Assembly: GCA_016214845.1 (NCBI GenBank)
Contig: JACRMS010000028.1
Location: 16,070-80,069, forward strand
Direction of reading: 5' to 3'
DNA: 64,000 nt
Origin: Nitrospirota bacterium
Lineage (GTDB): Bacteria; Nitrospirota; Thermodesulfovibrionia; UBA6902
The notes under the pieces are model-generated. The model worked only from the letters and a program-made list of their open reading frames with translations, did not search any database and was not told the origin of the DNA. This document shows positions 10,902-62,382 of this stretch, one piece after another; position 1 is the stretch's first letter, and every line of letters begins with the position of its first letter. The translations under genes and the position numbers were made by a program.

Positions 10902-10912
10902 TTAATGGACCT

Positions 10913-10990
10913 TCGTAATTCGTGATGCGTAATGAGTAATGTGTAATGGATATTTTGTTCAAACACTTTACGCATTACGCTTAACGCTTC
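10913..10990. repeat. Imperfect palindrome built from CGTAATG-type heptamers in the nuoA-nuoB gap
   Basis: gtaattcgtgatgcgtaatgagtaatgtgtaatgga ... ttacgcattacgcttaacgcttcacgg. Confidence 0.55.
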
Positions 10991-10998
10991 ACGGTTTT

Positions 10999-11370
10999 TC
11001 ATTCCCACTCGAACGCGCCCTTCTTCCAGACATATATATAGCCGACTAAGAGGATGAACATGAACAGCATCATTTCTACAAAGCCGAATATTCCGAGTTT
11101 ATCATAAGCGACCGCCCACGGATACAGGAAAACCGCTTCAACGTCAAACACGACAAAGAGCATTGCTACGATGTAAAACTTAACGGAAAATTTGTATCGC
11201 GGTTCGCCGACCGGGGGGTTTCCTGATTCATAAGGGAAGAGCTTTTGCGTATATGGCCTCCTGGGCCTGACAAGGATTCCGATTACCAGGGAGCCGAGCC
11301 CGATGAATAACGCAATCAGCACAATGATTACAACCGGGAAATAATCTGATGGAATAAATGTTCCTGGCAT
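10999..11370 (-). CDS. nuoA: NADH-quinone oxidoreductase subunit A
   Basis: 123-aa membrane protein with three TM helices, the first gene of the operon (nuoA to nuoL, all minus strand). Confidence 0.85.
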   Translation of the reverse strand: MPGTFIPSDYFPVVIIVLIALFIGLGSLVIGILVRPRRPYTQKLFPYESGNPPVGEPRYKFSVKFYIVAMLFVVFDVEAVFLYPWAVAYDKLGIFGFVEMMLFMFILLVGYIYVWKKGAFEWE

Positions 11371-11477
11371 AACGCTGTTTTTTATACAAAAAAACAGACA
11401 CCCTTGTCAAATTAATCTTGTTTATCGTTCTATAACGCTTACAGGAAATGGACCGCGCGATACCTGTTAAAGCCGTC

Positions 11478-11540
11478 ATGAGTAATGCGTTATAAGTTGT
11501 TCTTTGCACCCATTACGCGTTACGCATCACGCGTTACGAT
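11478..11540. repeat. GTAATG/CATTAC heptamer palindrome upstream of nuoA, in the divergent promoter region shared with the kinase gene
   Basis: atgagtaatgcgttataag...cccattacgcgttacgcatcacgcgttacg. It uses the same oligo family as the element at 10913-10990. Confidence 0.5.
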
Positions 11541-11624
11541 TTTTAAAGGCGCTTTATAAGAAAATGAAATCCTTTCATTTTGTCCTTTTAAAAATTTCAA
11601 AAGCATCCTATAATACTCCCCATT

Positions 11625-13226
11625 ATGAAGACCATCTTCAATTTCAGAAACCCCGAAAAATCCATTGCGACAAAACTCGTCATTGCAATCGGCCTGCTGA
11701 TCAGCATCGTAAGCTTTATTTTCTGGTATGCCATCCTGAAGAAACAGGAAGTGGACATCAGGTCCATAGCCGTAAAATACGGCGGGTCCTTCGTGAATTT
11801 TACAAAAGAGAGCATTCATCACAGCCTGCTGACATTCCAGCGCGAAGAGACACAGCGGGTGCTTGAAACTCTCGCCACACCTGAGGGCGTCAGGAGAGTA
11901 AGAATCTATAATCATCAAGGCACCATACTCTTCTGCTCGCACAAACAAAGCGTAGGGCAGATCATCGATAAGAACTCTGTCGCTTGCAAGGGCTGCCATG
12001 TTGAACCCGCTAAGTCTCCGGCGCTCCTGCAGACGCCTCAGGTATGGTCTGTTTACAAGGACAAAGGCGCCACTCACCTTAAAATTGTCGGGCCGATACC
12101 GAATGAACCGGGCTGTTCTACTGCAAGTTGTCACGCGCATCCCGAAGGGCAGAAGATCCTCGGATTTGTCGAGGCGGACCTGTCCCTGGCATTTCTTGAC
12201 GAGGCGCTTTTCAAGCAGGGTCTTGCCCTTACAGCCTACGTTGTAATATTCGTTATTGCCGTGTCGGTGTTCCTCGGAATAATTATCTACAAGATCGTTT
12301 CCAAGCCTGTCAGAGACTTAGTCAGCGGCATGGAGGAGGTCGCTGGCGGCAATCTCAATTACTCCGTCTCAATAAAATCCGCGGACGAGATGGGTGTGCT
12401 GGCCCAGACATTTAACTCTATGATCAAAGACCTGAAGGCGGCACGCGACCAGAGTGAGAAATTTACCCAGACACTTGAAGCGGAGGTAGCAAAGAAGACG
12501 GAGGAGATCCAAAAGACCCACACGAACCTCATGCAGACTGAAAAACTCGCCTCTCTCGGCAGGATGGCCGCAGGCGTGGCCCATGAAATCAACAACCCGC
12601 TGACAGGCGTTGTAACTTTTGCATATCTTTTAAAGAAGCGTTTTCCGGCAAACAGCTCTGAGTCGGAAGACCTGAATGTCATCATCGAACAGGCGGAGAG
12701 GTGTTCAAAGATAATAAAAAACCTTCTGACCTTTGCGCGCGCCACGCCCTCTGAAAAAGGGAAGGTCAGCATAAACGACATATTGAGCCGGACCATATTC
12801 ATGGTGCAGAACCAGGAGAAGTTCCATCACATCAAGTTCAATATTAACCTGGAGACTTTCCAGTTTATAATTGTCGGCGACCCGTCGCAATTCCAGCAGA
12901 TATTCCTGAATATGTTCATCAACGCGGCTGACGCCATGAACGGCAGGGGCAATATATTTGTTGCAACCCGCAGGATGACTGAAAACAATAAAGCCTATGT
13001 GGAGATAGAATTTACTGACGAGGGGAGCGGTATAAAAGAAGAGGACATGCCGAAGCTCTTTGAACCGTTCTTTACAACGAAGCCTGTTGGGAAAGGCACG
13101 GGGCTTGGACTTTCCGTCAGCCACGGTATCGTTAAACATTTGGGCGGCTATATCAAGGTGCAAAGCGCCGTTGGCAAAGGTACAAGCTTTTTTGTTAGAC
13201 TACCTTTAGCGGAAGAGGGAAAATGA
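11625..13226 (+). CDS. Sensor histidine kinase (2 TM, periplasmic domain with CxxCH motif, HAMP, HisKA, HATPase_c)
   Basis: TM helices at about aa 18-40 and 205-228. The periplasmic segment contains CKGCH (CxxCH) and CSTASCH. HAMP-like linker, H-box AHEINNPL, and G-boxes GSGIKEED and GKGTGLGLS. Confidence 0.8.
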   Translation: MKTIFNFRNPEKSIATKLVIAIGLLISIVSFIFWYAILKKQEVDIRSIAVKYGGSFVNFTKESIHHSLLTFQREETQRVLETLATPEGVRRVRIYNHQGTILFCSHKQSVGQIIDKNSVACKGCHVEPAKSPALLQTPQVWSVYKDKGATHLKIVGPIPNEPGCSTASCHAHPEGQKILGFVEADLSLAFLDEALFKQGLALTAYVVIFVIAVSVFLGIIIYKIVSKPVRDLVSGMEEVAGGNLNYSVSIKSADEMGVLAQTFNSMIKDLKAARDQSEKFTQTLEAEVAKKTEEIQKTHTNLMQTEKLASLGRMAAGVAHEINNPLTGVVTFAYLLKKRFPANSSESEDLNVIIEQAERCSKIIKNLLTFARATPSEKGKVSINDILSRTIFMVQNQEKFHHIKFNINLETFQFIIVGDPSQFQQIFLNMFINAADAMNGRGNIFVATRRMTENNKAYVEIEFTDEGSGIKEEDMPKLFEPFFTTKPVGKGTGLGLSVSHGIVKHLGGYIKVQSAVGKGTSFFVRLPLAEEGK

Positions 13227-13603
13227 AAAAAATACTGGTAATTGACGACGAAGCGATTGTAAGGACAAGCTGCGAAAGGGCCCTTGGACCGGAAGGCTAT
13301 GAAGTGAAAACAGTGGCCAGCGGCAGGGAGGGAGTTGAGCTCCTCAGGAAAGAGACTTTCGGACTGGTCCTGCTTGACCTGAAGATGCCTGACATGGACG
13401 GCATCGAGGTTTTAAACCTGATCAACACAAACTGGCCGAATACCAAGGTCGTTATGGTCACTGGTTACAGCACCGTCGAGACTGCTGTGCAGGCCCTCAG
13501 ACTTGGCGCGTATAATTTTATTGAAAAACCATTTACCCCCGACACGCTGGTTGCTGCTGTCAAAGAGGTTTTTGAAAATTCAGGGGACATTAAAAAGGAT
13601 TAA
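13223..13603 (+). CDS. Stand-alone receiver-domain response regulator (CheY-like)
   Basis: DDE(11-13), D in LLDLKMPDMDG, T in MVTGY and K in EKPFTP. There is no output domain. Its start overlaps the kinase stop (ATGA), suggesting translational coupling. Confidence 0.8.
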   Translation: MKKILVIDDEAIVRTSCERALGPEGYEVKTVASGREGVELLRKETFGLVLLDLKMPDMDGIEVLNLINTNWPNTKVVMVTGYSTVETAVQALRLGAYNFIEKPFTPDTLVAAVKEVFENSGDIKKD

Positions 13604-13654: not shown

Positions 13655-14005
13655 ATGACTCTCAAAGAGATAGCAGAGATCCTTGACGCAACAATTATTT
13701 CAGATTCAGATGATTTAAACGTTCAGATTGTAAACGCATGCAGCGCCGACATGATGAGCGCCGTGCTGTATTACCACACCCCGAATTCCCTGCTCATAAC
13801 CGGCCTTACCCAGCCGCATGTTATCAGGACCGCTGAGATCGCCGGCATAAAGACAATAGTGTTCGTCCTGAACAAAAAGCCTGACGCGTTAACTATCGAG
13901 CTGGCCAGGCAAAAGAAGATCCCGCTCCTCAGCACGCCGTGCTGCATGTACACCGCATCAGGAAGACTGTTCAGCGCGGGCCTGCCGGGCTGTCTGACCA
14001 AATAA
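13655..14005 (+). CDS. Small DRTGG-like domain protein
   Basis: 116-aa protein with the LLITGLTQPHVIRTAEIAGIKTIVFV pattern typical of DRTGG-like domains. These accompany GHKL ATPases in NuoEF-type hydrogenase regulatory loci. Assignment by recall only. Confidence 0.4.
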   Translation: MTLKEIAEILDATIISDSDDLNVQIVNACSADMMSAVLYYHTPNSLLITGLTQPHVIRTAEIAGIKTIVFVLNKKPDALTIELARQKKIPLLSTPCCMYTASGRLFSAGLPGCLTK

Positions 14006-14006
14006 G

Positions 14007-14444
14007 ATGGCTTTAAATATAACTGGAAATATAGACGGTATTTTTCAATTGATCGGCGGGAATTTTTCAACCGCCGGTGAGGCCTCCACCCAGTTGAAAC
14101 ATAAACTCGCTGAGATCGGTGTCGATGAGGAAATTATCAGGCGCGCGACCATAGCGACCTTTGAGGCTGAGATGAACGTGATAATATACGCGGCCGCGGG
14201 CTGGCTTCATTACTACATCACCCCTGAAAGCATAAAAATAAGAATAGAAGACATGGGTCCCGGAATCGAGAACATTGAACTGGCAATGCAGGAAGGCTAT
14301 TCCACGGCGCCTGAATGGGTCAGGGAAATGGGCTGGGGCGCGGGCATGGGGCTGCCGAACATGAAAAAAAATTCCGATACATTCACAGTCGACTCGGTTG
14401 TCGGCGAAGGCACAACAGTGGAGATGGTCATAAATTTTCCTTAA
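14007..14444 (+). CDS. GHKL-type ATPase (anti-sigma-factor/Ser-kinase-like HATPase_c)
   Basis: 145 aa with GPGIENIE and GWGAGMGL G-box-like motifs, the size of an RsbW/SpoIIAB-class protein. It is tightly linked to 13655 (1-nt gap). Confidence 0.55.
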   Translation: MALNITGNIDGIFQLIGGNFSTAGEASTQLKHKLAEIGVDEEIIRRATIATFEAEMNVIIYAAAGWLHYYITPESIKIRIEDMGPGIENIELAMQEGYSTAPEWVREMGWGAGMGLPNMKKNSDTFTVDSVVGEGTTVEMVINFP

Positions 14445-14447
14445 CCT

Positions 14448-14610
14448 TTTAGATAACAGATAACCACAGAGGACACGGAGATAAAAATAAAACAATCCAC
14501 AGATCTCTCAGATTGCACAGAGTTAGAAAAAACTCCTATTGAAAATCTGTGCAATCTGCGAAATCTGTGGACAATAAAATTCCTCTGTGACCTCTGTGGT
14601 TAATAGTTAA
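14448..14610. repeat. Cluster of CACAGAG/ATCTGTG heptamer and 9-mer repeats forming a long hairpin in front of ORF 14624
   Basis: tccacagatctctcagattgcacagag (14490-14516) is the reverse complement of tctgtgcaatctgcgaaatctgtgga (14547-14572). The same triple AATCTGYGN motif recurs at 22373-22400. Flanking ccacagaggacacggag resembles 61722-61740. Confidence 0.55.
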
Positions 14611-14623
14611 AAGGAGAACCGAT

Positions 14624-14956
14624 ATGAAAGTCAAAGACCTTGTTGATCAATTGTCTCTGGATGTCAGATCATTTAATGACGGCCTTGGAAATGACATAAC
14701 CGGGGCATATGTCAGCGACCTGCTTTCCGATGTGATGGGAAACAGCAAAAAGGGGAATGTCTGGATAACCCTTCAGACCCATCTGAATATTGTTGCTGTT
14801 GCAAGCATGAAAGACCTCTCCGCTATTATAATCGTCGGAGGCAGGCAGGCGCAGGAAGAGACCATTAAAAAAGCTGAACAGGAAAAGGTCACAATACTGA
14901 CGACCGCGTTGCCTTCATTCGAGGCGTCAGGCAAAATTTATCAGATTCTTAAATAA
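14624..14956 (+). CDS. Small DRTGG-like or CBS-associated domain protein (hypothetical)
   Basis: 110 aa with a strong SD (aaaggag) 8 nt upstream and an IIIVGGRQAQEE motif. Assignment is tentative. Confidence 0.35.
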   Translation: MKVKDLVDQLSLDVRSFNDGLGNDITGAYVSDLLSDVMGNSKKGNVWITLQTHLNIVAVASMKDLSAIIIVGGRQAQEETIKKAEQEKVTILTTALPSFEASGKIYQILK

Positions 14957-15118: not shown

Positions 15119-16516
15119 TTACAGTGGCAAATTAATTAAAAACCGGCTGCCCTTTCCAAATGCGCTTTCCACTTTAATGTTCCCGCCGTGCGCTTCTACA
15201 ATTATCTTTGATATGCTCAAGCCAAGGCCGGTGCCGTCTTCGCTTCTTGAAGTGTCCGCCCTGTAAAACCGTTCAAATATCTTTTCCAGATCGTCCTGCC
15301 CGATGCCGGGGCCTGTGTCTAAGACTGAGATCACTGCGGTATTGTTATTTCTTGCCGTGGTAATTTCCACTGCTCCGTTTTCCTTATTGTAGTTCACGGC
15401 GTTTTCAATTATGTTCAGAAATACCTCGGTGAGCCTGTCTTTATTTCCCGTTATATTAATGTCATCTTTAAGGACCGTATTTATTGTTACGGATTTCTTT
15501 TCTGTCAGCGGCACTGCCATCTGCGCCGCTTCCCGGATGCATTCATTTAAAGATACGATCTTAAAACCATCCGGAGACAGCATCCCCGAATCAAGGCGCG
15601 CCAGGGAAAGCAGGTCTTTTATAAGCCTGCCCATGTTCTCAGAGACGGTCCTGATCGTACTCAACGCTTCAACGTATTCATCCTTTGTCCTGTCCTTTTG
15701 AAGCAGGACGTCGCAGTGGGTCTTTATCACAGTAACAGGTGTCTTAAGCTCATGGGACGCATCAGCGACAAGACGCCGCTCCGTCTCAAACGCCTTCTGG
15801 AGCCGGTCCAGCATCGCATTGAAAGAATCCGCGAGCACGGACAGCTCATTGGTCACTGCCTCAACGTCTATCCTCTTGCTGAGGGTTTTATGGGTGATGT
15901 TTTCGATATCGGAAGAAAATATTTTTAAAGGATCCAAAGAATGATTTGCCGCCCACAGCCCTGCAAAACTGATTATAAGGATACCCACGGAAGCCGCGAT
16001 CAGCAAAAAACGTTTAAACATATTGATCATCTCAAGGCTGTCAGCGATGCTTTCGGCGGCAAATACGCTGACGGGAATGCCGAGGAAGTCAAGGTCATGC
16101 TGTTTTATCCGCACCGGTTCGTTGTCTGGCCCGACGGATGTATAGACCCTTTCACTGAGCGCTTCATCGTAATATTCAAGTTTGGCTGATGTTAAATTAA
16201 TATCCTCATCGGCAAGTGAAGGTGATGCCGCAAGCAGCCTTCCGTTCATCAGCACCTGGTAGTAATGTCCCGAGCGCGGGATGGAATACGCCCCTGCGAT
16301 GATCTCGGAGAGTTCAAGCTCTATCCTGCCGTCTTCTTCGTGAAGTAAACCCGTAATGACCTGAAGCTGCGAATGGAGCGCCCGGTCAACAGAGGCAAAG
16401 ATGATCCGCTCTACCTCATGATAGAGGAACAGACTGACGGTAATAAGCAGAATGGACGTCAAACTGAGGAACCAGAAGAATAACCTGCCCTTGATGGATT
16501 TGGGGAATATCTTCAC
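15119..16516 (-). CDS. Sensor histidine kinase (2 TM, periplasmic sensor, HAMP, HisKA, HATPase_c)
   Basis: H-box SHELKTP and G-boxes DTGPGIGQDD and GTGLGLSISK. Its stop abuts the start of the upstream regulator 16517-17188 (no intergenic gap). Confidence 0.8.
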   Translation of the reverse strand: MKIFPKSIKGRLFFWFLSLTSILLITVSLFLYHEVERIIFASVDRALHSQLQVITGLLHEEDGRIELELSEIIAGAYSIPRSGHYYQVLMNGRLLAASPSLADEDINLTSAKLEYYDEALSERVYTSVGPDNEPVRIKQHDLDFLGIPVSVFAAESIADSLEMINMFKRFLLIAASVGILIISFAGLWAANHSLDPLKIFSSDIENITHKTLSKRIDVEAVTNELSVLADSFNAMLDRLQKAFETERRLVADASHELKTPVTVIKTHCDVLLQKDRTKDEYVEALSTIRTVSENMGRLIKDLLSLARLDSGMLSPDGFKIVSLNECIREAAQMAVPLTEKKSVTINTVLKDDINITGNKDRLTEVFLNIIENAVNYNKENGAVEITTARNNNTAVISVLDTGPGIGQDDLEKIFERFYRADTSRSEDGTGLGLSISKIIVEAHGGNIKVESAFGKGSRFLINLPL

Positions 16517-17188
16517 TTACTCCTTTTCCAGGACATAGCCTGCGCCTCTTACCGTTCGAATAAGCTGTTTGCCGCGTCCCTTGTCAATCTTGTTTCTCAG
16601 ATAGTTGATATAGACGTCTATCACGTTGCTGTCAAGATCAAACTCCGAATCATAAATATGCTCGGTAAGTTCGGTCCTGCTTATTACCTTGCCGGTGTTG
16701 AGCGCGAGATATTCAAGCAGTTTATATTCGGTTGAAGAAAGTTTGATCTCCCTGTTGCCTCTCTTTACGGTCATGGAGTTCATGTCTATTTCGAGGTCGC
16801 CTATACCGATGGTTGACGAGGGTTTGCTCCTGCTTCTTCTTATAACGGCCTTCAGTCTTGCAAGCAGCTCTGAAAAATCAAACGGCTTTGCAATGTAGTC
16901 GTCCGCCCCGGTATTCAACCCCTTTATCCTGTCATCAACTTCCCCTCTCGCCGTTATCATAAGGACCGGCACGGCTACTTGTTTTGCCCTGATCTTTTTC
17001 AGGACTGTAAGCCCGTCCATTTTGGGAAGCATGATATCAAGAAGGATAGCGTCGTAAGAATATGTCTCTGCCATGAAAAGCCCTTCCTCGCCGTCAAAAC
17101 ATAATTCCACAACAAAGCCGTTTTCTTCAAGGCCCTTCTTCAGTATCCCCGCTAATTTCTTCTCATCTTCTACTATAAGTAAACGCAT
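16517..17188 (-). CDS. OmpR-family response regulator (REC plus winged-helix trans_reg_C)
   Basis: MRLLIVEDE...LLDIMLP receiver and a C-terminal winged helix with a GAGYVL-type end motif. Confidence 0.85.
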   Translation of the reverse strand: MRLLIVEDEKKLAGILKKGLEENGFVVELCFDGEEGLFMAETYSYDAILLDIMLPKMDGLTVLKKIRAKQVAVPVLMITARGEVDDRIKGLNTGADDYIAKPFDFSELLARLKAVIRRSRSKPSSTIGIGDLEIDMNSMTVKRGNREIKLSSTEYKLLEYLALNTGKVISRTELTEHIYDSEFDLDSNVIDVYINYLRNKIDKGRGKQLIRTVRGAGYVLEKE

Positions 17189-17253
17189 AGGATTTGGAAC
17201 AAAGTCTGCACAGGCAGTCAGGCATTTTGCCTGGCTGCCTGTGCAGGATGTTT

Positions 17254-18447
17254 TTAGTCCTCAAGCTCTATCTTGATAGCCGCATTGGTGTCGCTGTTGA
17301 TCTTGACCTCCACGATCCATCCTGTCTGAAGGTCGGTAAAACAGGCTTCGCCCTGACCCATCATGCCCTGTGTGTATTTGCACACTGTGTTATCAGTGAC
17401 AGTGATCGGGGCCGGGGCCGTGTCTAATGTGAAATCGGCTGCGCCTTTAGTAGCAACCTTTCCTTTGAGTTCCCTGTTCTGGTGCGTTTCACCTTCATCG
17501 CTGCCGGAATCAGAACCTTCACAATCCGATGATGATGATTTAGCTTCTATCTTGGTTGCAGTGATTGTAGTTGTTGAAGACAGATCATCGGATGTCTTTA
17601 TTTCGAGACAAGTATTGAGGGTGAGGGCATTCAGGCAGTTCGCCGCGCCGGAATAGTTTATATCATTCACTTCGCAGATCGTGCTGCCCGTGAGGTTAAC
17701 CGTAAAATCCGTGCTCATGTGTTTGACGGTTATACTGTCAGCCCCGACATTAGTCAATGTCCCGTGCAGATCAAATTCCGAAGCCTCTATCTCGCTTTCA
17801 GATGTAATCGGCTGCATCTTTACTTCTGTTATACACCACGAAGATGTATCAGCGGGACTTGTACACGAATACTTTTTTACCTCAAACTCTTTAAGGACAA
17901 AATCAACCACGAGCTTATCTGAGCTCAATGGCTGGACCCTGCCGTTAAACCTTATGAAGCATTTATTGCTGCCATCTGCCGGGCACTGCACTGTATCAGG
18001 CTTGTTTGGCTTTTCATCCATGTCGGAAAAGAAAGCGTTATGAGCAACGCCGCTGTTGTCCGTTATGCTTGCCATGTTCCCGATGATGATCTCAAGCCTG
18101 TTAAATGTCCCCGCAGGGAAGGTGGCAGTTGTTATTAACTGGAGAACACCGTTAAGCTTTGCAAGGTCAACTGAAAGCCCCGTTGCATTTATGTAGAGGT
18201 TCTCCTTGGTTGTACAGTCATTGTCAGAACACAGATTGATCTCATAAACAGTTACCGTTATCGCGGGGAACTGGTCTGCCGGGTCATCCGTTAAAAACAC
18301 CCCGACGCTTTTCGCCCCTGCTGAACTGTTTGAGCCTCCGCCTGAACCTGAGCCGCCTCCGCTGCCTCCGCCGCTACAGTACGCAAGTATCAATGCAACA
18401 CTTATTGCCCCTAACAGCAAAAGCATTTTTTTTCCTTTGGTAATCAT
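17254..18447 (-). CDS. Lipoprotein with Gly/Ser linker (DUF4382-like, hypothetical)
   Basis: Signal peptide and lipobox (LILAYC) followed by (GGGS)n low-complexity linker. Beta-rich and Cys-containing. Domain recall is uncertain. Confidence 0.45.
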   Translation of the reverse strand: MITKGKKMLLLLGAISVALILAYCSGGGSGGGSGSGGGSNSSAGAKSVGVFLTDDPADQFPAITVTVYEINLCSDNDCTTKENLYINATGLSVDLAKLNGVLQLITTATFPAGTFNRLEIIIGNMASITDNSGVAHNAFFSDMDEKPNKPDTVQCPADGSNKCFIRFNGRVQPLSSDKLVVDFVLKEFEVKKYSCTSPADTSSWCITEVKMQPITSESEIEASEFDLHGTLTNVGADSITVKHMSTDFTVNLTGSTICEVNDINYSGAANCLNALTLNTCLEIKTSDDLSSTTTITATKIEAKSSSSDCEGSDSGSDEGETHQNRELKGKVATKGAADFTLDTAPAPITVTDNTVCKYTQGMMGQGEACFTDLQTGWIVEVKINSDTNAAIKIELED

Positions 18448-18528
18448 GTTATTAACCTCCTGAATTTTTTCTGCTCAGCATTGAGCATTTTTTATGTGAT
18501 GCATTTCCCGGCGAACAGAGATCACGCC

Positions 18529-18849
18529 TCACTTCCTGGCCTTTTTGATCTCGATCTTATCCGCGGAAAACCCTTTCCCTTCATGTCCGCCCTTCACCTC
18601 AATATATGCGCCTGTCTCAGCCTTTCCGTGGTCCTCCTCAATCAGGGTATCGGATGTGACCAGTATCTCTCTCCCGTTCACTATCCAGGTCCCTATTAAC
18701 CCCTTTGGGAGTTCCTCTATCGTACCGTAGAGCTTGCTTTCATATCTCTTATGATGTTTATGCTCTTCGTCATCATTGCTGCCGAACACAACCCCCGCAG
18801 TCAAAGCAACTATCAATCCGATAGACAGAACAGCTGATAAGACCTTCAA
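18529..18849 (-). CDS. Small secreted protein (DUF5666-like, hypothetical)
   Basis: 106 aa with a signal peptide and a His/Lys-rich N-region. It is adjacent to the lipoprotein and likely co-regulated by the two-component system. Confidence 0.35.
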   Translation of the reverse strand: MKVLSAVLSIGLIVALTAGVVFGSNDDEEHKHHKRYESKLYGTIEELPKGLIGTWIVNGREILVTSDTLIEEDHGKAETGAYIEVKGGHEGKGFSADKIEIKKARK

Positions 18850-19064: not shown

Positions 19065-19808
19065 ATGCTGAAACCGTTTAAGGCCGACCTCCACATCCAC
19101 ACATGCCTCTCCCCGTGCGCCGACCTTGAAATGAGCCCATCCGCTGTAGTAAGAACGGCGCTTGAAAGAGGCATAGACATCATCGCTATCACCGACCATA
19201 ATTCAGCGGAAAATATAATCGCCGCCCGGAAGGCCGCTGAAAATTCAGGACTGACAGTGCTTGCCGGGATGGAGGTAACATCCTCGGAGGAAGCGCACAT
19301 CCTTGCGCTCTTTGATGATGCTGAAGGAATTATGAAATTACAGGATATCGTGTACGACAATCTGCTGCCGGGAGAGAACGACGAAAAACTCTTCGGCGAG
19401 CAGATAGTTGTAAATGAAAAAGACGAGGTCATGGATTTTAATAAACGCCTGCTCATCGGAGCGACATCATTGCCCGCAAAGACAATCGTTGACACGATAC
19501 ACACTTTAGGCGGCATTGCCATCGCTTCGCACATTGACAGGGACGCCTTCAGCATCGTATCACAGTTAGGCTTCATTCCTGAGGATTTAAATTTTGACGC
19601 GCTTGAGATGTCGCCAAGGACCGACAGGGGGAAAGCTGTGCTTTTATATAATGACTACGCCTCATTTGCTTGGACAACTTCCTCGGATGCACACTGGCTG
19701 AAAGACATCGGAGAAAGAACAACCACCTTCCTCATAAACCGGCCGACACTGGAGGAGATGAGACTGGCCATGAAAAACATTGACGGAAGAAAGGTGGAGT
19801 GGGGGTAA
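19065..19808 (+). CDS. PHP-domain phosphoesterase (HfsC-like putative protein phosphatase)
   Basis: N-terminus LHIHTCLSPCAD and a later ITDHNS metal-binding motif typical of PHP domains. It overlaps the downstream GHKL ATPase by 10 nt. Confidence 0.7.
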   Translation: MLKPFKADLHIHTCLSPCADLEMSPSAVVRTALERGIDIIAITDHNSAENIIAARKAAENSGLTVLAGMEVTSSEEAHILALFDDAEGIMKLQDIVYDNLLPGENDEKLFGEQIVVNEKDEVMDFNKRLLIGATSLPAKTIVDTIHTLGGIAIASHIDRDAFSIVSQLGFIPEDLNFDALEMSPRTDRGKAVLLYNDYASFAWTTSSDAHWLKDIGERTTTFLINRPTLEEMRLAMKNIDGRKVEWG

Positions 19809-20359
19809 TCATGCAAGACCTTTCATTACACATCCTCGACATCGTTGAGAACTCGATAAACGCAAGCGCCACAGAGATCGGGATAAAGATCGTTGAAGAC
19901 ACCAAAGTAAATATTCTCTCCGTTGAAATAAGCGACAACGGCAGGGGCATGGATGAGGAGATGCTGAAAAAGGTCCATGACCCTTTCTTTACCACAAAGT
20001 GCAAGCGGACAGGCCTGGGCATCCCGCTGCTTGCGCAGTCGGCAAAGGAATGTAATGGTGATCTGACTATAAAAACGGGGTCGGGCATAGGCACAACGAT
20101 CAGCGCGCGTTTTCAGTTTGACCATATCGACAGGAAGCCTCTTGGAGATATCTGCAAGACAATGATCGTCCTGATCGCCTCGAATCCTGATGTTGATTTC
20201 ATTTATGAGCACAGGAGAAATGATGAATCTTACGTCCTGAATACCTCTGAAATCAAGAAGGAATTGGATGATGTTCCGATCAATTTACCCGATGTGATAA
20301 AAATTATTAAAGATGATATAAGCGCATGGTTAATTAGTACAAACATTATGATACAATAG
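19799..20359 (+). CDS. GHKL-type ATPase (HfsD-like Ser/Thr-kinase-like HATPase_c)
   Basis: HILDIVENSINA N-box, DNGRGMDEE G1 and GLGIPL/GSGIG G2 motifs. There is no HisKA or H-box. Confidence 0.6.
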   Translation: MGVIMQDLSLHILDIVENSINASATEIGIKIVEDTKVNILSVEISDNGRGMDEEMLKKVHDPFFTTKCKRTGLGIPLLAQSAKECNGDLTIKTGSGIGTTISARFQFDHIDRKPLGDICKTMIVLIASNPDVDFIYEHRRNDESYVLNTSEIKKELDDVPINLPDVIKIIKDDISAWLISTNIMIQ

Positions 20360-20444: not shown

Positions 20445-21209
20445 ATGGAAAAAGGCAGAATATTAGTACTCGATGACGATCCTGTTGTGACCCTGAGCTG
20501 CAAGAGAATACTCGGCGCAGAAGGCTACAGCATTTCAACTGTCGAAAAAGGAGAAGACGCCCTCAATAAACTCGCCAAGGAAGATTTCGACCTCCTCATC
20601 TCCGACGTAAGACTGCCTGATATCAGCGGCATGACCGTGCTCAAAGAGGCACGGGTCATCAAGCCGAAGACGGACGTTGTAATAATCACCGGCTATCCCA
20701 CGCTCGAAGACGCAAGGGAATCCACAAGGCTCGGCGCTCATGAGTATATTGAAAAGCCCTTCACGCCTGATTTCATGATCAATGTCGCAAAGAAGATCTT
20801 CGACACAAGGGGCTGGATCCTCAGGCAGGCGTTCATCGACGAGTTCAGGGATTCCGTCACCCCGCTGAGGGACCAGGAAAATCCGGTCATCTTTTATAAG
20901 GAAGGGACCTGGGCAAGGCCCGTCAAGGACGGCATGTGGGAGATCGGCTGCGATCTCAGATACTGGATGTTGGCGGGAAATCTCATGTACGTTGATTTAA
21001 TGAAGGACATAGATAAACTGGAAGCGGGGAGGCCCTTCGCAAGAATTTACTCAAGCGGCGGACAGGGGAGCGAACTGCTTTCTCCGATGAACGGGGAAAT
21101 AACTGAAGTCAATACAAAGGCGAACGATGTAATGGTCGCTCTATTGAAAGACCATTTGTCCGAAGGCTGGCTCCTGTGGCTTGCAAAAGTATTGCCGATA
21201 GGAAGTTAG
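20445..21209 (+). CDS. Receiver domain fused to a GcvH-like (lipoyl-type hybrid-barrel) domain that lacks the lipoyl-Lys
   Basis: REC residues DDD(10-12), D in LISDVRLPD and K in EKPFTPD. The C-terminus aligns to glycine-cleavage H protein (GTWARP..EIGCDLRYWMLAGNLMYVDL...SPMNGEITEVN...EGWLLW). The ESVKA Lys position reads YSSGGQG. Confidence 0.65.
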   Translation: MEKGRILVLDDDPVVTLSCKRILGAEGYSISTVEKGEDALNKLAKEDFDLLISDVRLPDISGMTVLKEARVIKPKTDVVIITGYPTLEDARESTRLGAHEYIEKPFTPDFMINVAKKIFDTRGWILRQAFIDEFRDSVTPLRDQENPVIFYKEGTWARPVKDGMWEIGCDLRYWMLAGNLMYVDLMKDIDKLEAGRPFARIYSSGGQGSELLSPMNGEITEVNTKANDVMVALLKDHLSEGWLLWLAKVLPIGS

Positions 21210-21212
21210 CAA

Positions 21213-21328: not shown

Positions 21329-22201
21329 TTGATGGCAGACAATCTGAAAATCCTTGTCGTTGACGATGAGCCTATTGTTATAAAAAGCTGCGTGGCCGTG
21401 CTCAAGGCCGAAGGATATAACATCGAAGGTACGCTGAGCGGAAAAGACGCGATACTCAAGATGGAGCAAAACCCCTACGACCTCGTTTTCACTGACCTGA
21501 AGATGCCTGAAGTTGACGGCATAACCCTTATCAGATGGATCAAGCAAAAAAGACCTGACACGGGGATAGTGATAATCACAGGCTATCCTTCGCAGGACAC
21601 GATCAAAGACGCGCTTGAATTAGGCATTATTGATTACGTTCCGAAACCTTTTACCCCGGCAGTGCTTCTTGACGTGACCCAAAGAGCGGTTGAATGGGTA
21701 AAAGGAAAAGTCCCTGTAACAGAGGAAGTCAAAGAAGAATTCCCGCCTTCCATGATCCAGGAAATAGACAGGGTGATAAAACAGTATAAAAATAAACCCG
21801 GCAGTTCGATACCCGTGCTGCAGCGCTGCCAGCAGATAGTGGGTTATCTCCCTCCTGTTGTGCAGAAACGCATCGCAAGGGGTTTGAATATAACCCCTGC
21901 TGAGATCCACAGCATTGTTACCTTCTATTCCTTTTTCACAATGAAGCCCAGAGGCGACCACAACATCAGGATATGCCTCGGCACTGCGTGTTACGTTAAA
22001 AGGGTTGAAGAAGTCCTGAACAAGATAAAAGAAGATTTGAAACTGGAAGTCGGCGAAGTGACTTCGGACAAAAAATTCTCTCTGGAAACAGTCCGCTGCC
22101 TCGGCGCGTGCGGCCTTGCGCCTGTCATGGTCATTGATGATGAGACCTACGGCGCAATGAGCCCGAAGAAAGTGCCTGAGATCATCGAACAGTATAAATG
22201 A
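21329..22201 (+). CDS. Receiver domain fused to a NuoE/HoxE-like thioredoxin-fold [2Fe-2S] subunit
   Basis: N-terminal REC with DDE(12-14), D in FTDLKMPEVDG and K in VPKPFTPA. The C-terminus has the NuoE ligand pattern CLGTACYVKR...CLGACGLAPVMVIDDETYG. Confidence 0.75.
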   Translation: MMADNLKILVVDDEPIVIKSCVAVLKAEGYNIEGTLSGKDAILKMEQNPYDLVFTDLKMPEVDGITLIRWIKQKRPDTGIVIITGYPSQDTIKDALELGIIDYVPKPFTPAVLLDVTQRAVEWVKGKVPVTEEVKEEFPPSMIQEIDRVIKQYKNKPGSSIPVLQRCQQIVGYLPPVVQKRIARGLNITPAEIHSIVTFYSFFTMKPRGDHNIRICLGTACYVKRVEEVLNKIKEDLKLEVGEVTSDKKFSLETVRCLGACGLAPVMVIDDETYGAMSPKKVPEIIEQYK

Positions 22202-22415: not shown

Positions 22416-22799
22416 ATGGCGAGATTAACCATTGAGGACCTAAAGAAGATAAAGGAAAAACAGCACGCCACCTTCACTCTCAGGGAAGGCGGATACAGGG
22501 CGAAGGTCACAGTCCACATGGGCACATGCGGGATCGCCGCCGGAGCGAGAGAGATCATGGCGGCCCTGCTTGATGAAATAGCCCAGTCAAAGGCTGAAGA
22601 CATAATTACAACAACCTCAGGCTGCGCTGGGCTTTGCGCGCGCGAGCCGATGATAACCGTTGAGGTGCTGAACAAACCGCCGGTGAAATACGGCGACCTG
22701 ACAGCAGAAAAGCTGAGAGAGATATTTAAAGAGCACGTTCTGGGCGGCAACCCTGTAGAAAAATACGCGCTGGTTGCAGGAAGTGAAACAACGTATTAA
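22416..22799 (+). CDS. Thioredoxin-like [2Fe-2S] ferredoxin subunit (HndB-like)
   Basis: 127 aa with CGIAAG...SGCAGLCAREP Cys pattern. The SD aaaggag lies inside the conserved ATCTGYG leader motif. Confidence 0.6.
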   Translation: MARLTIEDLKKIKEKQHATFTLREGGYRAKVTVHMGTCGIAAGAREIMAALLDEIAQSKAEDIITTTSGCAGLCAREPMITVEVLNKPPVKYGDLTAEKLREIFKEHVLGGNPVEKYALVAGSETTY

Positions 22800-22889: not shown

Positions 22890-24761
22890 ATGGAAAAGTA
22901 TCGTGCAAACTTACTAATGTGTGCGGGAACAGGCTGCGTAGCAAGCGGGACCCCCAAGGTAAAAGCTGCCTTGCAGGAAGAGCTGCAGAAGAGGGGGCTT
23001 GCCGATGAGATAAAGATCGTACTCACCGGGTGTAACGGGTTCTGCGCTGAGGGGCCTGTCATGCTCGTTTATCCTGATGAGATTTTTTACCAGAAGCTCA
23101 CCGTTGAAGATATTCCAAAGCTTGTTGAAGAACATTTTCTTAAAGGGCGTCCTTATGAAAAATTGATGTTCAGGGAGCCGGAGAAAAAGTCGGCGATCCC
23201 CCTGATGAAGGACATACCGTTCTTCAAACACCAGGTGCTGAGGGTCCTGAGAAACAAAGGTTTGATAGACCCTGAAAGCCTTGACGAATACATTGCAAGG
23301 GACGGCTACATGGCTGCCGCAAAGGCCCTCCATGAAATGACGTCAGCGGACATAATAAAGGTCATGAAAGACTCAGGGATCAGGGGGCGCGGCGGCGCGG
23401 GATTTCCAACGGGAATGAAATGGGATTTCGCATCAAAGTCGGTTGCGGACCAGAAATTCATGCTATGTAACGGAGACGAAGGAGACCCCGGCGCGTTCAT
23501 GGACAGGTCGGTCATGGAGGCAGACCCGCATTCGGTAATAGAGGGAATGATGATAGGCGCAAAGGCCATTGGCGCGAGCAAGGGCGTTATTTATGTAAGA
23601 GCTGAATATCCGCTGGCGGTAAAGCGCCTGCAATTGGCAATAGACAAATGCCGCGAGGCGGGACTGTTAGGAGAAAATATTCTCGGCAGCGGCTTTAACT
23701 TCGACCTTGAAATATATCTTGGCGCCGGTGCGTTCGTATGCGGTGAGGAGACCGCGCTCATGCGCTCAATTGAAGGCAAGCGCGGGATGCCGAGACCAAG
23801 ACCGCCCTTCCCTGCCCACAAAGGTTTATGGGACAAGCCTTCGGTCCTGAACAATGTCGAAACCCTCGCCCAGGTAGCGCCGATCATTCTGAACGGGGCT
23901 GATTGGTATAAAACCCTGGGCACTGAAAAAAGCACCGGCACAAAAGTATTCGCCCTCACCGGCGACATCAGGAACGTGGGCCTTGTCGAGGTCCCGATGG
24001 GGATCCCGCTGAGGACCATAATTTATGACATCGGCGGCGGGATGAAGAACAAGAAAAAGAAATTCAAGTCAGTGCAGATGGGAGGGCCTTCAGGAGGCTG
24101 CATCCCTGAAAGCCATATTGATATCCCGGTCACATATGAAGACGTTGTCAAGACCGGCGCCATCATGGGTTCAGGCGGCATGGTCGTCATGGACGAAGAC
24201 ACCTGCATGGTGAGCACTGCAAAATTTTTCCTTGAATTCACCGCTGACGAATCCTGCGGCAAATGTACGCCGTGCAGAGTCGGCACGAGGGTAATGCTTG
24301 ATATGCTCACCGACATCACGGAGGGCAGGGGAAAAGACGGTGACATTGAAACGCTTCAGGACCTGAGCAGGGACATTATTTTAACGTCTCTTTGCGGTCT
24401 CGGGCAGACAGCCCCAAACCCTGTCCTTTCGACGATCAGATATTTTAAAAATGAATATGAATCACACATCATTGACAACTGGTGCAAGACGGGCATATGC
24501 AGGAACCTCTGTTCCTTCCATATATTTGAAGACCTCTGCAAAGGATGCGGCGCATGTTTAAGAGGATGCCCACAGCAGGCGATCGTCGGCGAGAAGAAAC
24601 AGCCCCACCGGATCATCCAGGAGCTCTGCATACAATGCAGGAACTGTTACGACACATGTAAGTTCGGATCAATAAAGATAGGCCCGAAAGGGTGCAAAGA
24701 CATAAAAGCCATGCGCGAGCTTTTGGAGAAGGTTGAGAAAGTTGAGGAGGTCAAGGGATGA
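22890..24761 (+). CDS. NuoF-like NAD(H)-binding flavoprotein subunit with an extra N-terminal 2Fe-2S domain and C-terminal 2x[4Fe-4S] ferredoxin domain (HndC/HydB/FdhB-type)
   Basis: N-terminal CAGTGC...CNGFCAEGP, central GRGGAGFPTGMKW and ESCGKCTPCR, C-terminal CKGCGACLRGCP and CIQCRNCYDTC. 623 aa against the 420-aa true NuoF at 6707-7969. Confidence 0.85.
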   Translation: MEKYRANLLMCAGTGCVASGTPKVKAALQEELQKRGLADEIKIVLTGCNGFCAEGPVMLVYPDEIFYQKLTVEDIPKLVEEHFLKGRPYEKLMFREPEKKSAIPLMKDIPFFKHQVLRVLRNKGLIDPESLDEYIARDGYMAAAKALHEMTSADIIKVMKDSGIRGRGGAGFPTGMKWDFASKSVADQKFMLCNGDEGDPGAFMDRSVMEADPHSVIEGMMIGAKAIGASKGVIYVRAEYPLAVKRLQLAIDKCREAGLLGENILGSGFNFDLEIYLGAGAFVCGEETALMRSIEGKRGMPRPRPPFPAHKGLWDKPSVLNNVETLAQVAPIILNGADWYKTLGTEKSTGTKVFALTGDIRNVGLVEVPMGIPLRTIIYDIGGGMKNKKKKFKSVQMGGPSGGCIPESHIDIPVTYEDVVKTGAIMGSGGMVVMDEDTCMVSTAKFFLEFTADESCGKCTPCRVGTRVMLDMLTDITEGRGKDGDIETLQDLSRDIILTSLCGLGQTAPNPVLSTIRYFKNEYESHIIDNWCKTGICRNLCSFHIFEDLCKGCGACLRGCPQQAIVGEKKQPHRIIQELCIQCRNCYDTCKFGSIKIGPKGCKDIKAMRELLEKVEKVEEVKG

Positions 24762-27223
24762 TTAATCTGACCATTAACGGTAAAAAAATTACTGCTGAAG
24801 ACGGAGCGACAATACTGCAGGCCGCGCTGAAAAACAATATTCATATACCCAACCTCTGCTACGACAAAAGGCTCAGGCCCTACGGCGGATGCAGGCTGTG
24901 CATAGTTGAGGTCGAGGGACAGGCGAGGCTCTTTGCGGCCTGTTCGTCCCCTGCTGAAAACGGCATGGTCGTCACCACGGACACGCCCAAACTCAGGAAG
25001 CTGCGCCAGACGGTCATCGAGCTGCTTTTAGTCCACCATCCGCTCGATTGTCCTGAATGCGACAAGGCGGGTGAATGCCAGCTGCAGGACCTTGCTTATG
25101 AATGCGGCAAGCCCGAAGCGCGTTTTTTAAGACACAGGAAAGAGGCCACGGCAGACGTCAGGGGGCCGTTGATCGAGTTGACCTCAAGAAGATGCATACT
25201 CTGCGGAAAGTGCGTGAGGATATGCGCTGAACACCAGGGAAGAGGCGCGCTCGGTTTGATCGGAAGAGGTTTTCCCACAGTCGTTCAGCCCGCCTTCGGT
25301 GAGATACTTGAATGCGATTACTGCGGGCAGTGCCTCGACATCTGTCCCACGGGGGCGATACTGAGCAAGCCTTATAAATTCACTTCGCGCTCGTGGTTCC
25401 TTGAAGAGAAGGACACCATCTGCCCGTTCTGCGGCGTCGGCTGCACCCTCACCATCGGCATCAGGGAAGGAAAGATACTGAGGTCCAGGGGAGAGGAAGG
25501 CAAAGGCGTCAATGACGGAAACCTCTGCGGAAGGGGCAGGTTCGGCATTGATTATATCTACAACGAAAAGCGCCTGAAAAAACCGTTAATTAAAAAGGGC
25601 GACGAACTGGTCCCTGTCTCATGGGAAGAGGCCTTGTCCTATATTTCAAACAAACTGAACGCTGTGATAAAAAATCACGGAGCGGCTTCAATAGGAGCCA
25701 TCGGCTCTCCGAGATGCACCAACGAAGATAATTATGTCCTGCAAAAATTCATGAGGAAGGTAATCGGAACAAACAATATTGATTCCTCCGCCGCATTCGG
25801 CTACAACAAAGTGCAGAAGGCATGGGAAATGTCCTTCGGCGGGAAAAACCATCCCATAGACCTGAGATATCCTCTGGGCAAAGAGGCCATCCTTATAATC
25901 GAATCAAACATCAGCGTCACACACCCGGTGTACGGGCTTAACATCCTCCAGGCAAAAAGAGAAGGCGCTAAACTCATTGTCGCTGACTCAAGAGAGACAA
26001 AGCTGACAAAACACAGCACGCAGTGGCTCAGTATCAAGGACGGCACAGGCGTCGCCTTTTTAAACGGATTAATGAAAGTCATCATCGACAGGGAACTTTA
26101 TGATAAAGACGCCGCGTCAAAGATATCAGGTTTCTCGTCTCTAAAATCAGCCTTGGCAAATTACACCCTTAAAAACGTCTCAGATATTACAGGCATCCCG
26201 GAAGATGAAATCATCTCTGCCGCAGAAACATTTGCAAAGGCAAAGAGCAGGATGGTCTCACTTACTGTCAGCGCGTCTGAAAACACAAAAGGCATGGACA
26301 CAGTGCTTGCCGCCGCGAACCTCGTCAATCTTTTAGGTGACAGCCCTGAGGCCCTGCAAATTCCCGCGAACTACTCAAACAGCTACGGTCTCTACCAGAT
26401 GGGCGTAAGGCCCTTCCAGCAGCCGCTGAACATGGGCGTCTTCGAGATGCTTTACAGTGAAGAGAGCTCGCTCAAGTCGCTGTATATCATGGGAGAAGAC
26501 CCGGCAGTCACATTCCCCGACAGCGCAAAGATAATAAAGAGATTGAAGTCCCTTGATTTCCTCGTGGTGCAGGATATCTTCCTCACTGAAACCGCAAAGC
26601 TTGCAAACGTGGTGCTGCCCGCGTCAAGCTGGGCCGAAAAAGACGGGACCTTCATGAATGCAGAAGGCGTCCTGCAAAAAGTTTACAAACTGACAGACCC
26701 CGCAGGCGAATCATATCCGGACTGGATGATACTGAAAAATCTCGCCCTGACCATGGGCAAAGACGCGGGAGTCAAAAACCTGCAGGGTATCCAGGAGGAA
26801 ATAAAATCTCTTATCTCAGCCCACGACCCGGCAGGGGAGAAAAAGACGTTCAACCCTGTAGAGTATAAACCTGGAGAGGACCCGAATCCTGATTATCCGC
26901 TGAAGCTTGTGATAAGGGATGTCCTTCAGCACTCAGGCAGCATGTCCACAAGCTCCAAATCACTCGACCTCGTTATCTCCGAGGCATTGCTTGAAATAAA
27001 TGAGGAAGACGCAAAGAGGCACGGCATACTCGATAACAGTCATGTGAAGCTGGTCTCAAAACGCGGGTCCGTGTACCTGAAGGCCCAATATTCAGATGAA
27101 ATTCCAGAAGGCACGGTCTTTGTGCCCACGCACTTCCCTTACGCAAAGATAAACGCTCTCACTCAGGCCTCCTCAAACGGCGAGCCGCCGATCATTGCGG
27201 TGAATGTCGAGGCTACGAAGTAG
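24758..27223 (+). CDS. NuoG-like 2Fe-2S/4Fe-4S subunit with a non-catalytic molybdopterin-oxidoreductase-like domain (paralog of nuoG)
   Basis: N-terminus CYDKRLRPYGGCRLCIVEV, HPLDCPECDKAGECQLQD and CxxCxxC. The motif SPRCTNEDNYVLQKFMRKVIGTNNIDSSAAFGY has no Cys/SeCys-His pair at the formate dehydrogenase active-site position. Confidence 0.8.
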   Translation: MINLTINGKKITAEDGATILQAALKNNIHIPNLCYDKRLRPYGGCRLCIVEVEGQARLFAACSSPAENGMVVTTDTPKLRKLRQTVIELLLVHHPLDCPECDKAGECQLQDLAYECGKPEARFLRHRKEATADVRGPLIELTSRRCILCGKCVRICAEHQGRGALGLIGRGFPTVVQPAFGEILECDYCGQCLDICPTGAILSKPYKFTSRSWFLEEKDTICPFCGVGCTLTIGIREGKILRSRGEEGKGVNDGNLCGRGRFGIDYIYNEKRLKKPLIKKGDELVPVSWEEALSYISNKLNAVIKNHGAASIGAIGSPRCTNEDNYVLQKFMRKVIGTNNIDSSAAFGYNKVQKAWEMSFGGKNHPIDLRYPLGKEAILIIESNISVTHPVYGLNILQAKREGAKLIVADSRETKLTKHSTQWLSIKDGTGVAFLNGLMKVIIDRELYDKDAASKISGFSSLKSALANYTLKNVSDITGIPEDEIISAAETFAKAKSRMVSLTVSASENTKGMDTVLAAANLVNLLGDSPEALQIPANYSNSYGLYQMGVRPFQQPLNMGVFEMLYSEESSLKSLYIMGEDPAVTFPDSAKIIKRLKSLDFLVVQDIFLTETAKLANVVLPASSWAEKDGTFMNAEGVLQKVYKLTDPAGESYPDWMILKNLALTMGKDAGVKNLQGIQEEIKSLISAHDPAGEKKTFNPVEYKPGEDPNPDYPLKLVIRDVLQHSGSMSTSSKSLDLVISEALLEINEEDAKRHGILDNSHVKLVSKRGSVYLKAQYSDEIPEGTVFVPTHFPYAKINALTQASSNGEPPIIAVNVEATK

Positions 27224-53001: not shown

Positions 53002-53022
53002 GTTTAAGGTCTCCTTATGAGA

Positions 53023-62376: not shown

Positions 62377-62382
62377 GCCTGA

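Follow-up and report, generated by a model that had tools for sequence, protein, structure and literature searches.

Response regulators are classed by their output domains, and some of them, such as CheY and the adaptor RssB, combine a canonical receiver with an effector that does not bind DNA and act post-translationally on a protein target. The H-protein of glycine cleavage, GcvH (PF01597; structures 3a7a/3a8i from E. coli and the bovine 3klr), is a barrel-sandwich hybrid that bears lipoate on a lysine, and H-protein structures show the lipoamide arm sheltered in a surface cleft. Here we describe a gene in which these two kinds of protein are joined. It lies at 20445..21209 on the + strand of a 64,000-nt stretch from Nitrospirota bacterium (UBA6902; GCA_016214845.1, JACRMS010000028.1 positions 16,070-80,069, forward strand); we call this whole stretch the window and use its positions throughout. 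The product (MBI5056823.1, hereafter REC-GcvH) has three parts, a receiver domain (REC), a long linker helix and a C-terminal GcvH-like domain without the lipoyl-lysine, and it is a response regulator whose output domain is new.

The H-protein fold has also been described outside glycine cleavage. GcvH-L of Streptococcus and Staphylococcus (5a35) is a divergent member that keeps a modifiable lysine and has no receiver domain. LbpA, from sHdr sulfur oxidation, is a GcvH-like lipoate-binding protein that needs its lipoylated lysine and serves as a substrate carrier (PMC6067878), and Simiate/Abitram (FAM206A) is a eukaryotic GcvH-derived protein reused as a non-enzymatic interaction protein (PMC3859600). 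Over about 95 residues REC-GcvH is similar to GcvH, with which it also shares the hybrid fold and two motifs of the domain, (Y/F)xK(E)xxW towards the N-terminus and GW towards the C-terminus, but it differs in the glycine at the lipoyl-lysine position, the missing C-terminal helix, the receiver in front, the lack of gcvT/gcvP linkage, and the presence of extra invariant tryptophans and a highly conserved cysteine. It resembles GcvH-L as a divergent H-protein fold outside glycine cleavage, but possesses a receiver and no modifiable lysine. The likeness to LbpA is a genetic tie to Hdr-type complexes, which is true of a more distant class of relatives fused to HdrC; the window class, however, has a receiver, no lysine, and a neighbour of NuoEFG/Bfu type with no Hdr genes, and the distant class also mostly lacks the lysine despite its hdrCB neighbours. 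Simiate, likened here by its published description, is restricted to eukaryotes and has no signalling output role. Finally, REC-GcvH is similar to CheY and RssB in its canonical receiver, its lack of a DNA-binding effector and, presumably, its post-translational protein target, but it differs from them in the GcvH-like output fold and in the presumed target, a flavin/iron-sulfur oxidoreductase.

Full-text literature searches returned no paper on a receiver-GcvH architecture and none on REC control of electron-bifurcating NuoE-type complexes. In the literature searched, neither a GcvH-derived output fold nor a flavin/iron-sulfur complex as target is described for any response regulator, and the paper defining the Bfu family mentions neither receiver nor glycine-cleavage domains (PMC9304861). 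REC-GcvH would offer a clear case in which the fold of a prosthetic-group carrier lost that group and was put to use as a signalling domain.

A response regulator with a GcvH-like output domain

The open reading frame (ORF) is a real gene: a Shine-Dalgarno sequence (AGGGGG) is located about 7 nt 5' of its ATG, and this start agrees with those of 79 full-length orthologs of 253-259 aa. The exact protein is labelled only 'response regulator' at NCBI, and the JGI label is 'CheY-like chemotaxis protein / glycine cleavage system H lipoate-binding protein'. Its features are the following, with the supporting evidence in brackets.

20445..21209, + strand: gene of the response regulator with REC and lysine-less GcvH-like domain, 254 aa
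20445..20789, + strand: receiver domain, aa 1-115 (Pfam, conservation, AlphaFold2 (AF2) fold, Foldseek)
20472-20477, + strand: D10/D11 acidic pocket (phosphorylation residues)
20604-20606, + strand: D54, phospho-acceptor (phosphorylation residues)
20688-20690, + strand: T82 (phosphorylation residues)
20754-20756, + strand: K104, in K104-P105 (phosphorylation residues)
20766..20855, + strand: long helix, aa 108-137, that extends REC alpha-5 into the linker RGWILRxAFIDEFR (AF2 model, conservation)
20856..21197, + strand: GcvH-like barrel-sandwich domain, aa 138-251 (Pfam, phmmer, Foldseek, AF2 model, conservation)
20949-20951, + strand: Cys169, conserved in >90% of homologs (conservation)
21060-21062, + strand: Gly206, in place of the lipoyl-lysine (phmmer alignment, codon check)

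The C-terminal domain belongs to the H-protein superfamily by sequence and by fold. In the full protein, the Pfam family GCV_H (PF01597) matches residues 150-245, which correspond to profile positions 3-97 of 122 (E = 1.5e-9, 38.2 bits). The scores of the Pfam searches are 38.2-40.2 bits relative to a gathering cut-off of 22.2. When the C-terminal 139 aa were searched alone, GCV_H was the sole Pfam family recovered, even at E <= 10; at this threshold the segment matched neither the biotinyl/lipoyl attachment domain PF00364 nor any ligand-binding family. No DNA-binding or enzymatic domain was detected by Pfam in the full protein or in these 139 aa at E <= 10, and a role as transcription factor was ruled out for lack of a DNA-binding domain. 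A possible analogy to the RnfC_N/NqrA hybrid barrel found no support in profile searches. Among PDB sequences, phmmer matched 13 H-proteins, of which E. coli GcvH was the best (E = 9e-6), with an alignment extending from YSKEHEW/FYKEGTW through GGWIF/EGWLL.

Two AF2 models were used. The first, built on a shallow and fragment-rich alignment, presented a mean predicted local distance difference test (pLDDT) of 60 and a poor REC, and served only for the fold search of the GcvH-like domain. Against the PDB, the first 22 Foldseek ranks were all H-proteins (E = 3e-7 to 1.4e-5), with template modelling (TM) scores of 0.61-0.69 on target length; GcvH-L (5a35) was found at rank 22 with a TM score of 0.69. 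The second model, from a better alignment, reached a mean pLDDT of 91.4 and shows a (beta-alpha)5 receiver, the helix of aa 108-137 and a beta-barrel domain at aa 138-251, with pLDDT of 79-96 per 10-residue block over residues 141-230. A Foldseek search of this full-length model against the PDB, in which REC matches dominate the list, revealed no solved structure with both domains; RssB was among the weak full-length matches.

An earlier note on this DNA, made without database searches, had claimed that the C-terminal region aligns with GcvH along its length and that the ESVKA motif reads YSSGGQG. The H-protein was recovered by all three approaches (Pfam, with PF01597 above threshold, phmmer and Foldseek), which confirms the note's description, and the phmmer alignment places the lipoate-bearing Lys64 of E. 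coli GcvH opposite Gly206 of YSSGGQG, as the note had read it. The likeness along the length holds up to the GWL region, but the last ~25 profile positions are absent: the match stops at position 97, the helix with which GcvH ends (profile positions ~98-122) is missing, and the protein terminates 9 residues past GWLLWLAKV. The domain also contains a tryptophan-rich core (W156, W165, W174, W242 and W245). REC-GcvH is therefore not to be filed as GcvH or LbpA, because its output domain fails on the lipoyl-lysine, the C-terminal helix and the gcv linkage, and we predict that lipoate cannot be attached at its canonical site.

The receiver is recognized as well. Response_reg (PF00072) matches residues 6-113 (E = 1e-25; 90.4 bits relative to a cut-off of 30.2), the (beta-alpha)5 fold has a pLDDT of ~95 or more over residues 11-110 of the second model, and REC structures match it in Foldseek with TM scores of ~0.9 and a root-mean-square deviation of ~1 Å. 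D10, D11, T82 and K104 show no variation, and >90% of sequences keep D54 (46-80 homologs). The receiver is thus predicted to be catalytically competent from its intact phospho-acceptor residues.

Conservation across the ortholog family

Relatives were collected in a species-level scan (one genome per species) and were found in at least 101 genomes; the identities given here are those of the best 80, which are 59-96% identical to the window protein. Nearly all are labelled Nitrospirota/Thermodesulfovibrionia, including Candidatus Sulfobium, and a groundwater Nitrospirae metagenome-assembled genome matches the window at 96% identity. A profile search of 1.84 billion representatives yielded 57 matches at E <= 1e-3, and the REC-GcvH family is therefore narrow.

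Within this family, the mean frequency of the top residue is 0.75 in the GcvH-like domain relative to 0.85 in REC. Blocks that are invariant or >90% conserved comprise NPVIFYKEGTWARP, WEIGCDxRYW, LSEGWLLWLA and the linker RGWILRxAFIDEF. This pattern and the constant length across the species indicate that REC-GcvH evolves under strong purifying selection. In contrast to these blocks, variation within the domain is highest in the hairpin flanks (positions 203-210), with the exception of G206; this fits a fold that has been retained with an abandoned prosthetic-group site.

The composition of the hairpin bears directly on whether REC-GcvH could still be a lipoyl or biotinyl carrier through a non-canonical lysine. 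A lysine does occur one position past the canonical site (position 207) in seven of the 80 orthologs, and also in P0001/P0009. However, the canonical position 206 is a glycine in 79 of 80 orthologs (serine in the remaining one), position 207 is a glutamine in 59/80 (histidine in 4), and no conserved lysine was found anywhere in the hairpin of the 80 orthologs. Likewise, neither the cluster nor the window ORFs scanned contain a lipoate or biotin ligase gene. Lipoylation at a non-canonical lysine was rejected on this hairpin composition, and we consider a carrier function extremely improbable.

The same alignments raise the possibility that the GcvH-like domain senses a small ligand or redox state through Cys169 and the tryptophan-rich pocket, which would take the place of the lipoamide cleft, and so integrates a second signal or becomes modified at the cysteine. 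C169, R172, Y173, W174, W165 and W242 vary little or not at all across the 46-80 homologs, and GcvH itself shelters its lipoamide arm in a surface cleft. Yet there is a single conserved cysteine, which corresponds to a leucine or valine in the most distant homologs (P0036, P0044 and P0045), no cofactor motif is recognisable, and the Pfam searches described above matched no ligand-binding family. A sensory role of the domain is, in our view, quite unlikely.

The gene neighbourhood and its flavin/iron-sulfur complex

We mapped the neighbourhood of REC-GcvH by tblastn over 83 loci, with counts restricted to the loci that have enough flank. The window-type order is histidine kinase (HK), REC, DRTGG, HATPase_c_2, DRTGG, PHP, HATPase, REC-GcvH, REC-NuoE, 2Fe-2S ferredoxin (Fd), NuoF-like and NuoG-like. 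In the window, the neighbours are located as follows.

11625..13226, + strand: candidate cognate sensor kinase, HAMP-HisKA-HATPase (Pfam, synteny)
13223..13603, + strand: stand-alone REC of 126 aa, a member of this REC subfamily, with translational coupling to the kinase
13655..14956, + strand: DRTGG / HATPase_c_2 / DRTGG accessory proteins (conserved cluster members)
19065..20359, + strand: PHP-domain protein and HATPase protein without HisKA, directly upstream of REC-GcvH (Pfam, tblastn map)
21332..22201, + strand: REC fused N-terminally to a NuoE/HoxE-type 2Fe-2S subunit (ATG at 21332, preceded by GGGAGG)
22416..22799, + strand: small thioredoxin-like 2Fe-2S ferredoxin (Pfam, tblastn map)
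22890..24761, + strand: NuoF/HydB (Bfu-B type) subunit with N-terminal 2Fe-2S, flavin mononucleotide/NADH and C-terminal 2x[4Fe-4S] domains
24758..27223, + strand: NuoG/FdsA-like molybdopterin-fold subunit, 821 aa (profile, alignment)

REC-NuoE was missing in 0 of 59 loci. It stands immediately next to REC-GcvH in 50 of them and, in the other nine, comes after a 2.9 kb insert encoding NfnA- and NfnB/GltD-like proteins; 38 of 39 loci carry the NuoG-like gene. A promoter-like site was found at 19030-19059, 5' of the PHP gene. No + strand terminator-like site was detected in the intergenic gaps of 19065-22500, and the single + strand match (21353-21370) sits inside the REC-NuoE coding sequence. 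The absence of terminators from the gaps between the PHP gene and REC-NuoE supports a putative operon. Neither the conserved cluster nor the scanned ORFs of the window include gcvT, gcvP or lpd, and the window cluster contains no hdr genes.

A phosphorylatable redox-enzyme subunit, as predicted for REC-NuoE, is unusual by itself. At an identity of at least 74%, no fewer than 120 protein clusters carry this fusion; their NCBI names are 'response regulator' or 'NAD(P)H-dependent oxidoreductase subunit E'. The Pfam domains of the NuoF-like subunit are 2Fe-2S_thioredx (6-81), Complex1_51K, NADH_4Fe-4S and two Fer4 (545-591). BfuB/HydB are set apart from their non-bifurcating homologs by a 2Fe-2S domain added at the N-terminus and 2x[4Fe-4S] domains at the C-terminus, besides flavin mononucleotide and the N3-type cluster (PMC9304861). 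The neighbouring complex is similar to BfuABC/HydABC in having these extra iron-sulfur domains in its NuoF-like subunit, and its NuoE-like domain corresponds to the BfuC-type 2Fe-2S subunit. HATPase genes accompany it, and HATPase genes outside the holoenzyme are found in Bfu operons too (PMC9304861). Unlike in Bfu, the subunit at the place of BfuA is FdsA-like without the catalytic Cys-His.

The closest relative of this NuoG-like subunit is the NAD-dependent formate dehydrogenase FdsA (9wxb, 6tg9), and in NCBIfam it scores too low to pass either the Fdh-alpha or the NuoG cut-off. The catalytic 'ARVCHS' of FdsA aligns with 'AAFGYN', so that VCH is replaced by FGY, and a function as formate dehydrogenase was ruled out on this replacement. 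From these domain compositions the neighbour is assigned to a Bfu-type NAD(H)/iron-sulfur module, which in some genomes is co-encoded with NfnAB-like proteins. The earlier note had named NuoEFG-like subunits as the partner to look for. NuoE-, NuoF- and NuoG-like subunits are indeed encoded there, but they are of the Bfu/HydB type with a degenerate FdsA-like subunit and do not form an ordinary Nuo N-module.

A conventional nuo operon is encoded divergently on the minus strand of the window (NuoD 8522..9739; NuoF 6707..7969, 420 aa; NuoG 4026..6590, 854 aa), and this divergent arrangement recurs in many related loci. Complex I is thus accompanied by a second set of paralogs, of HydB type, and it is this NuoEFG-like set that would be regulated. 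The Nfn pair (NfnA-like, 277 aa; NfnB/GltD-like, 482 aa) lies between REC-GcvH and REC-NuoE at 10480..12763 of locus L021 and likewise in L030, L045-L048, L051, L059, L060 and L075, about ten related genomes in all. In L021, L045, L046 and L060, a second NuoF-like gene follows the NuoG-like gene.

The window cluster is split by a block of ~3.7 kb (15119..18849), which contains an OmpR-type kinase and regulator on the minus strand (OmpR-type REC at 16517..17188), a 397-aa Gly/Ser-rich probable lipoprotein and a 106-aa ORF. The cluster is contiguous in L001, L014, L026 and others, and the block looks like an insertion.

Related modules fused to redox-complex subunits

The weaker matches of the profile search are REC + GcvH-like proteins from other metagenomic lineages. 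Their recurrent context consists of an HK, several RECs, sometimes a free REC-GcvH-like protein, and then a REC-GcvH-like-HdrC fusion, followed downstream by HdrB (CCG), a fusion of an HdrA fragment with NuoE, a 2Fe-2S Fd and NuoF; GltD-like, DRTGG and HATPase_c_2 genes are sometimes added. In P0064, an example of such a fusion, Pfam identifies Response_reg, GCV_H and a Fer4 dicluster. The lysine column of 35 distant-class domains contains 20 glycines, five arginines and three lysines, and the three domains with a lysine have an altered loop length. This recurrence in distant lineages implies that the combination of REC and lysine-less H-protein fold is not a one-off. The modules are repeatedly tied, even covalently, to redox complexes of NuoEF/Hdr type. 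Since REC is fused to NuoE in the window class and REC-GcvH-like to HdrC in the distant class, such RECs would be physically part of the complexes.

Loci with the triple fusion include L084 (2608..8043) and L089-L100, with up to five stand-alone RECs upstream, and JGI labels the fusion 'heterodisulfide reductase subunit C'. In L104-L111, a kinase precedes two tandem REC-GcvH-like genes, and no redox-complex genes were recognised among the queries used. Paired RECs recur, either as free and enzyme-tethered paralogous RECs or as tandem REC-GcvH pairs. A profile search with the distant-class alignment returned only ordinary stand-alone GcvH proteins. P0054 (2154 aa, '9 stretches') was rejected as a multi-GcvH protein, being a spurious repeat or a phage-tail-like protein.

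The context of both classes is relevant to the question of which proteins the GcvH-like domain contacts. It could target proteins other than the redox complex, namely the HATPase_c_2, HATPase, PHP or DRTGG proteins of the cluster, or act as a decoy, controlled by phosphorylation, for the natural partners of the H-protein (the P-, T- and L-proteins and lipoate ligases). In window-type loci a HATPase gene is directly upstream of REC-GcvH, HisK-like genes outside the holoenzyme are known from Bfu operons (PMC9304861), and the surfaces recognised by enzymes could persist in a domain that has retained the sequence and fold of an H-protein. In Sulfobium-type loci, however, the DRTGG/HATPase/PHP set is found downstream of the NuoG-like gene, while the adjacency to REC-NuoE never breaks; the window ORFs scanned include no gcvT, gcvP or lipoate-ligase genes; and it is HdrC, a redox-complex subunit, to which the distant class is fused. 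We consider these other targets unlikely.

Receiver relatives and the candidate kinase

The window holds only four RECs. With the stand-alone REC at 13223 as reference, the scores are 112 bits for REC-GcvH, 87 bits for REC-NuoE and 53 bits for the OmpR-type REC. Relative to the REC of REC-GcvH, the identity is 44% for the REC at 13223, 36% for REC-NuoE and 27% for the OmpR-type REC. When the distant class is included, these RECs score 80-130 bits among themselves as against 50-65 to the OmpR-type REC. In the family consensus of 62-81 orthologs, the three RECs also share the alpha-1 pattern V..SC.R.L..EGY, and the alpha-1 region of receivers usually determines kinase specificity. The (E/P)KPFTP(D/A) motif that the earlier note had reported for the RECs at 13223, 20445 and 21329 is likewise present in the three consensus sequences. 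The note's description of these RECs as close paralogs was too strong: they are mutual best matches in the window and their scores place them in one subfamily, but an identity of 36-44% is too low for 'close'.

The kinase at 11625..13226 contains a ~160-aa extracytoplasmic domain between two transmembrane segments, in which Pfam recognises no domain; its cytoplasmic part spans residues ~230-533. Two motifs, CKGCH (CxxCH) from 11985 and CSTASCH (Cx4CH) from 12114, are kept in 37-38 of 38 orthologs, and the protein is probably a periplasmic c-type haem redox sensor. That one kinase feeds the three REC outputs, as the earlier note suggested, is plausible, considering that a single HisKA kinase is found upstream in 34 of 47 loci. 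Other possible inputs encoded in the cluster are the two HisKA-less HATPase proteins, the PHP protein and the DRTGG proteins.

Sink or branched pathways typically have several receivers per kinase, and here there are the stand-alone REC1, REC-GcvH and REC-NuoE, with extra receivers in loci of the Sulfobium type and of the distant class. REC-GcvH might thus be a phosphate sink or a dimerisation scaffold whose GcvH-like domain only self-associates, without a specific target; the long alpha-5 linker helix of the AF2 model could form a coiled coil. The stand-alone REC1, however, already fits the role of a sink, and the GcvH-like domain is conserved nearly like REC (0.75 and 0.85, respectively) and is retained in independent lineages and fusions. 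Such a role therefore has a low probability.

Proposed function

We propose that REC-GcvH is a non-catalytic interaction subunit, switched by phosphorylation, which regulates the adjacent flavin/iron-sulfur complex post-translationally in response to the kinase with haem motifs. This proposal is based on the invariable linkage to the Bfu-type genes, the fusion of REC to NuoE and the fusion of REC-GcvH-like modules to HdrC. We assign to it a probability of about 0.45, the mechanism being inferred. The synteny in 59/59 loci, together with the HdrC fusions, strengthens what the earlier note had already suggested, a protein-interaction module directed at NuoEFG-like subunits.

According to this model, the membrane kinase would sense the extracytoplasmic redox state, probably through c-type haem, and would phosphorylate D54 of REC-GcvH as well as its two paralogs, the stand-alone REC (13223) and the REC of REC-NuoE (21332). 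Phosphorylation would alter the alpha4-beta5-alpha5 face of REC and the long alpha5/linker helix. The altered REC may then pair with the REC of REC-NuoE, or the GcvH-like barrel may be freed, or possibly both. The barrel would dock on the adjacent Bfu-type complex of NuoE, Fd, NuoF and NuoG-like subunits, and this docking would switch the assembly of the complex or its electron flow after translation.

Several observations weigh against this proposal. The evidence for the target is indirect, as it consists of synteny and of fusions in a different subfamily. The AF2 model shows no partner, and its inter-domain geometry is uncertain (predicted TM score, pTM, of 0.65). The hairpin that contacts partner enzymes in GcvH is the least conserved part of the domain here (203-210 except G206). 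The two HATPase proteins, the PHP protein and the DRTGG proteins of the cluster could be the real partners. In addition, the FdsA-like subunit of the NuoEFG-like complex is without the catalytic Cys-His.

If true, the proposal would mean that a two-component system controls electron flow itself rather than transcription, with phosphorylation acting directly on redox enzymes. The post-translational regulation of electron-bifurcating and NADH-dependent enzymes, which are central to anaerobic energy metabolism, is poorly understood, and the components named here (one kinase, three RECs and one complex) make up a concrete set that can be tested. A broader reading is rather doubtful: REC + GcvH-like modules could constitute a recurrent, so far undescribed class of two-component outputs by which, and by RECs fused to NuoE or HdrC themselves, anaerobes gate flavin-based electron-bifurcating or NADH-linked iron-sulfur complexes through phosphorylation of proteins, with a periplasmic haem-c kinase as the trigger in Thermodesulfovibrionia.

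Other regions of the window

On the minus strand, a 2903-aa ORF (44359..53070) with GH94 supersandwich, GH94 catalytic and glucoamylase-like domains resembles cyclic beta-1,2-glucan synthase. The GC-content is 54-57% around this ORF and 38-43% in its flanks (38-44 kb and 54-56 kb), and this contrast suggests a mosaic of horizontally acquired DNA. A BatA/BatD/VWA/TPR operon of the 'aerotolerance' type is located at 56823..63258, also on the minus strand.

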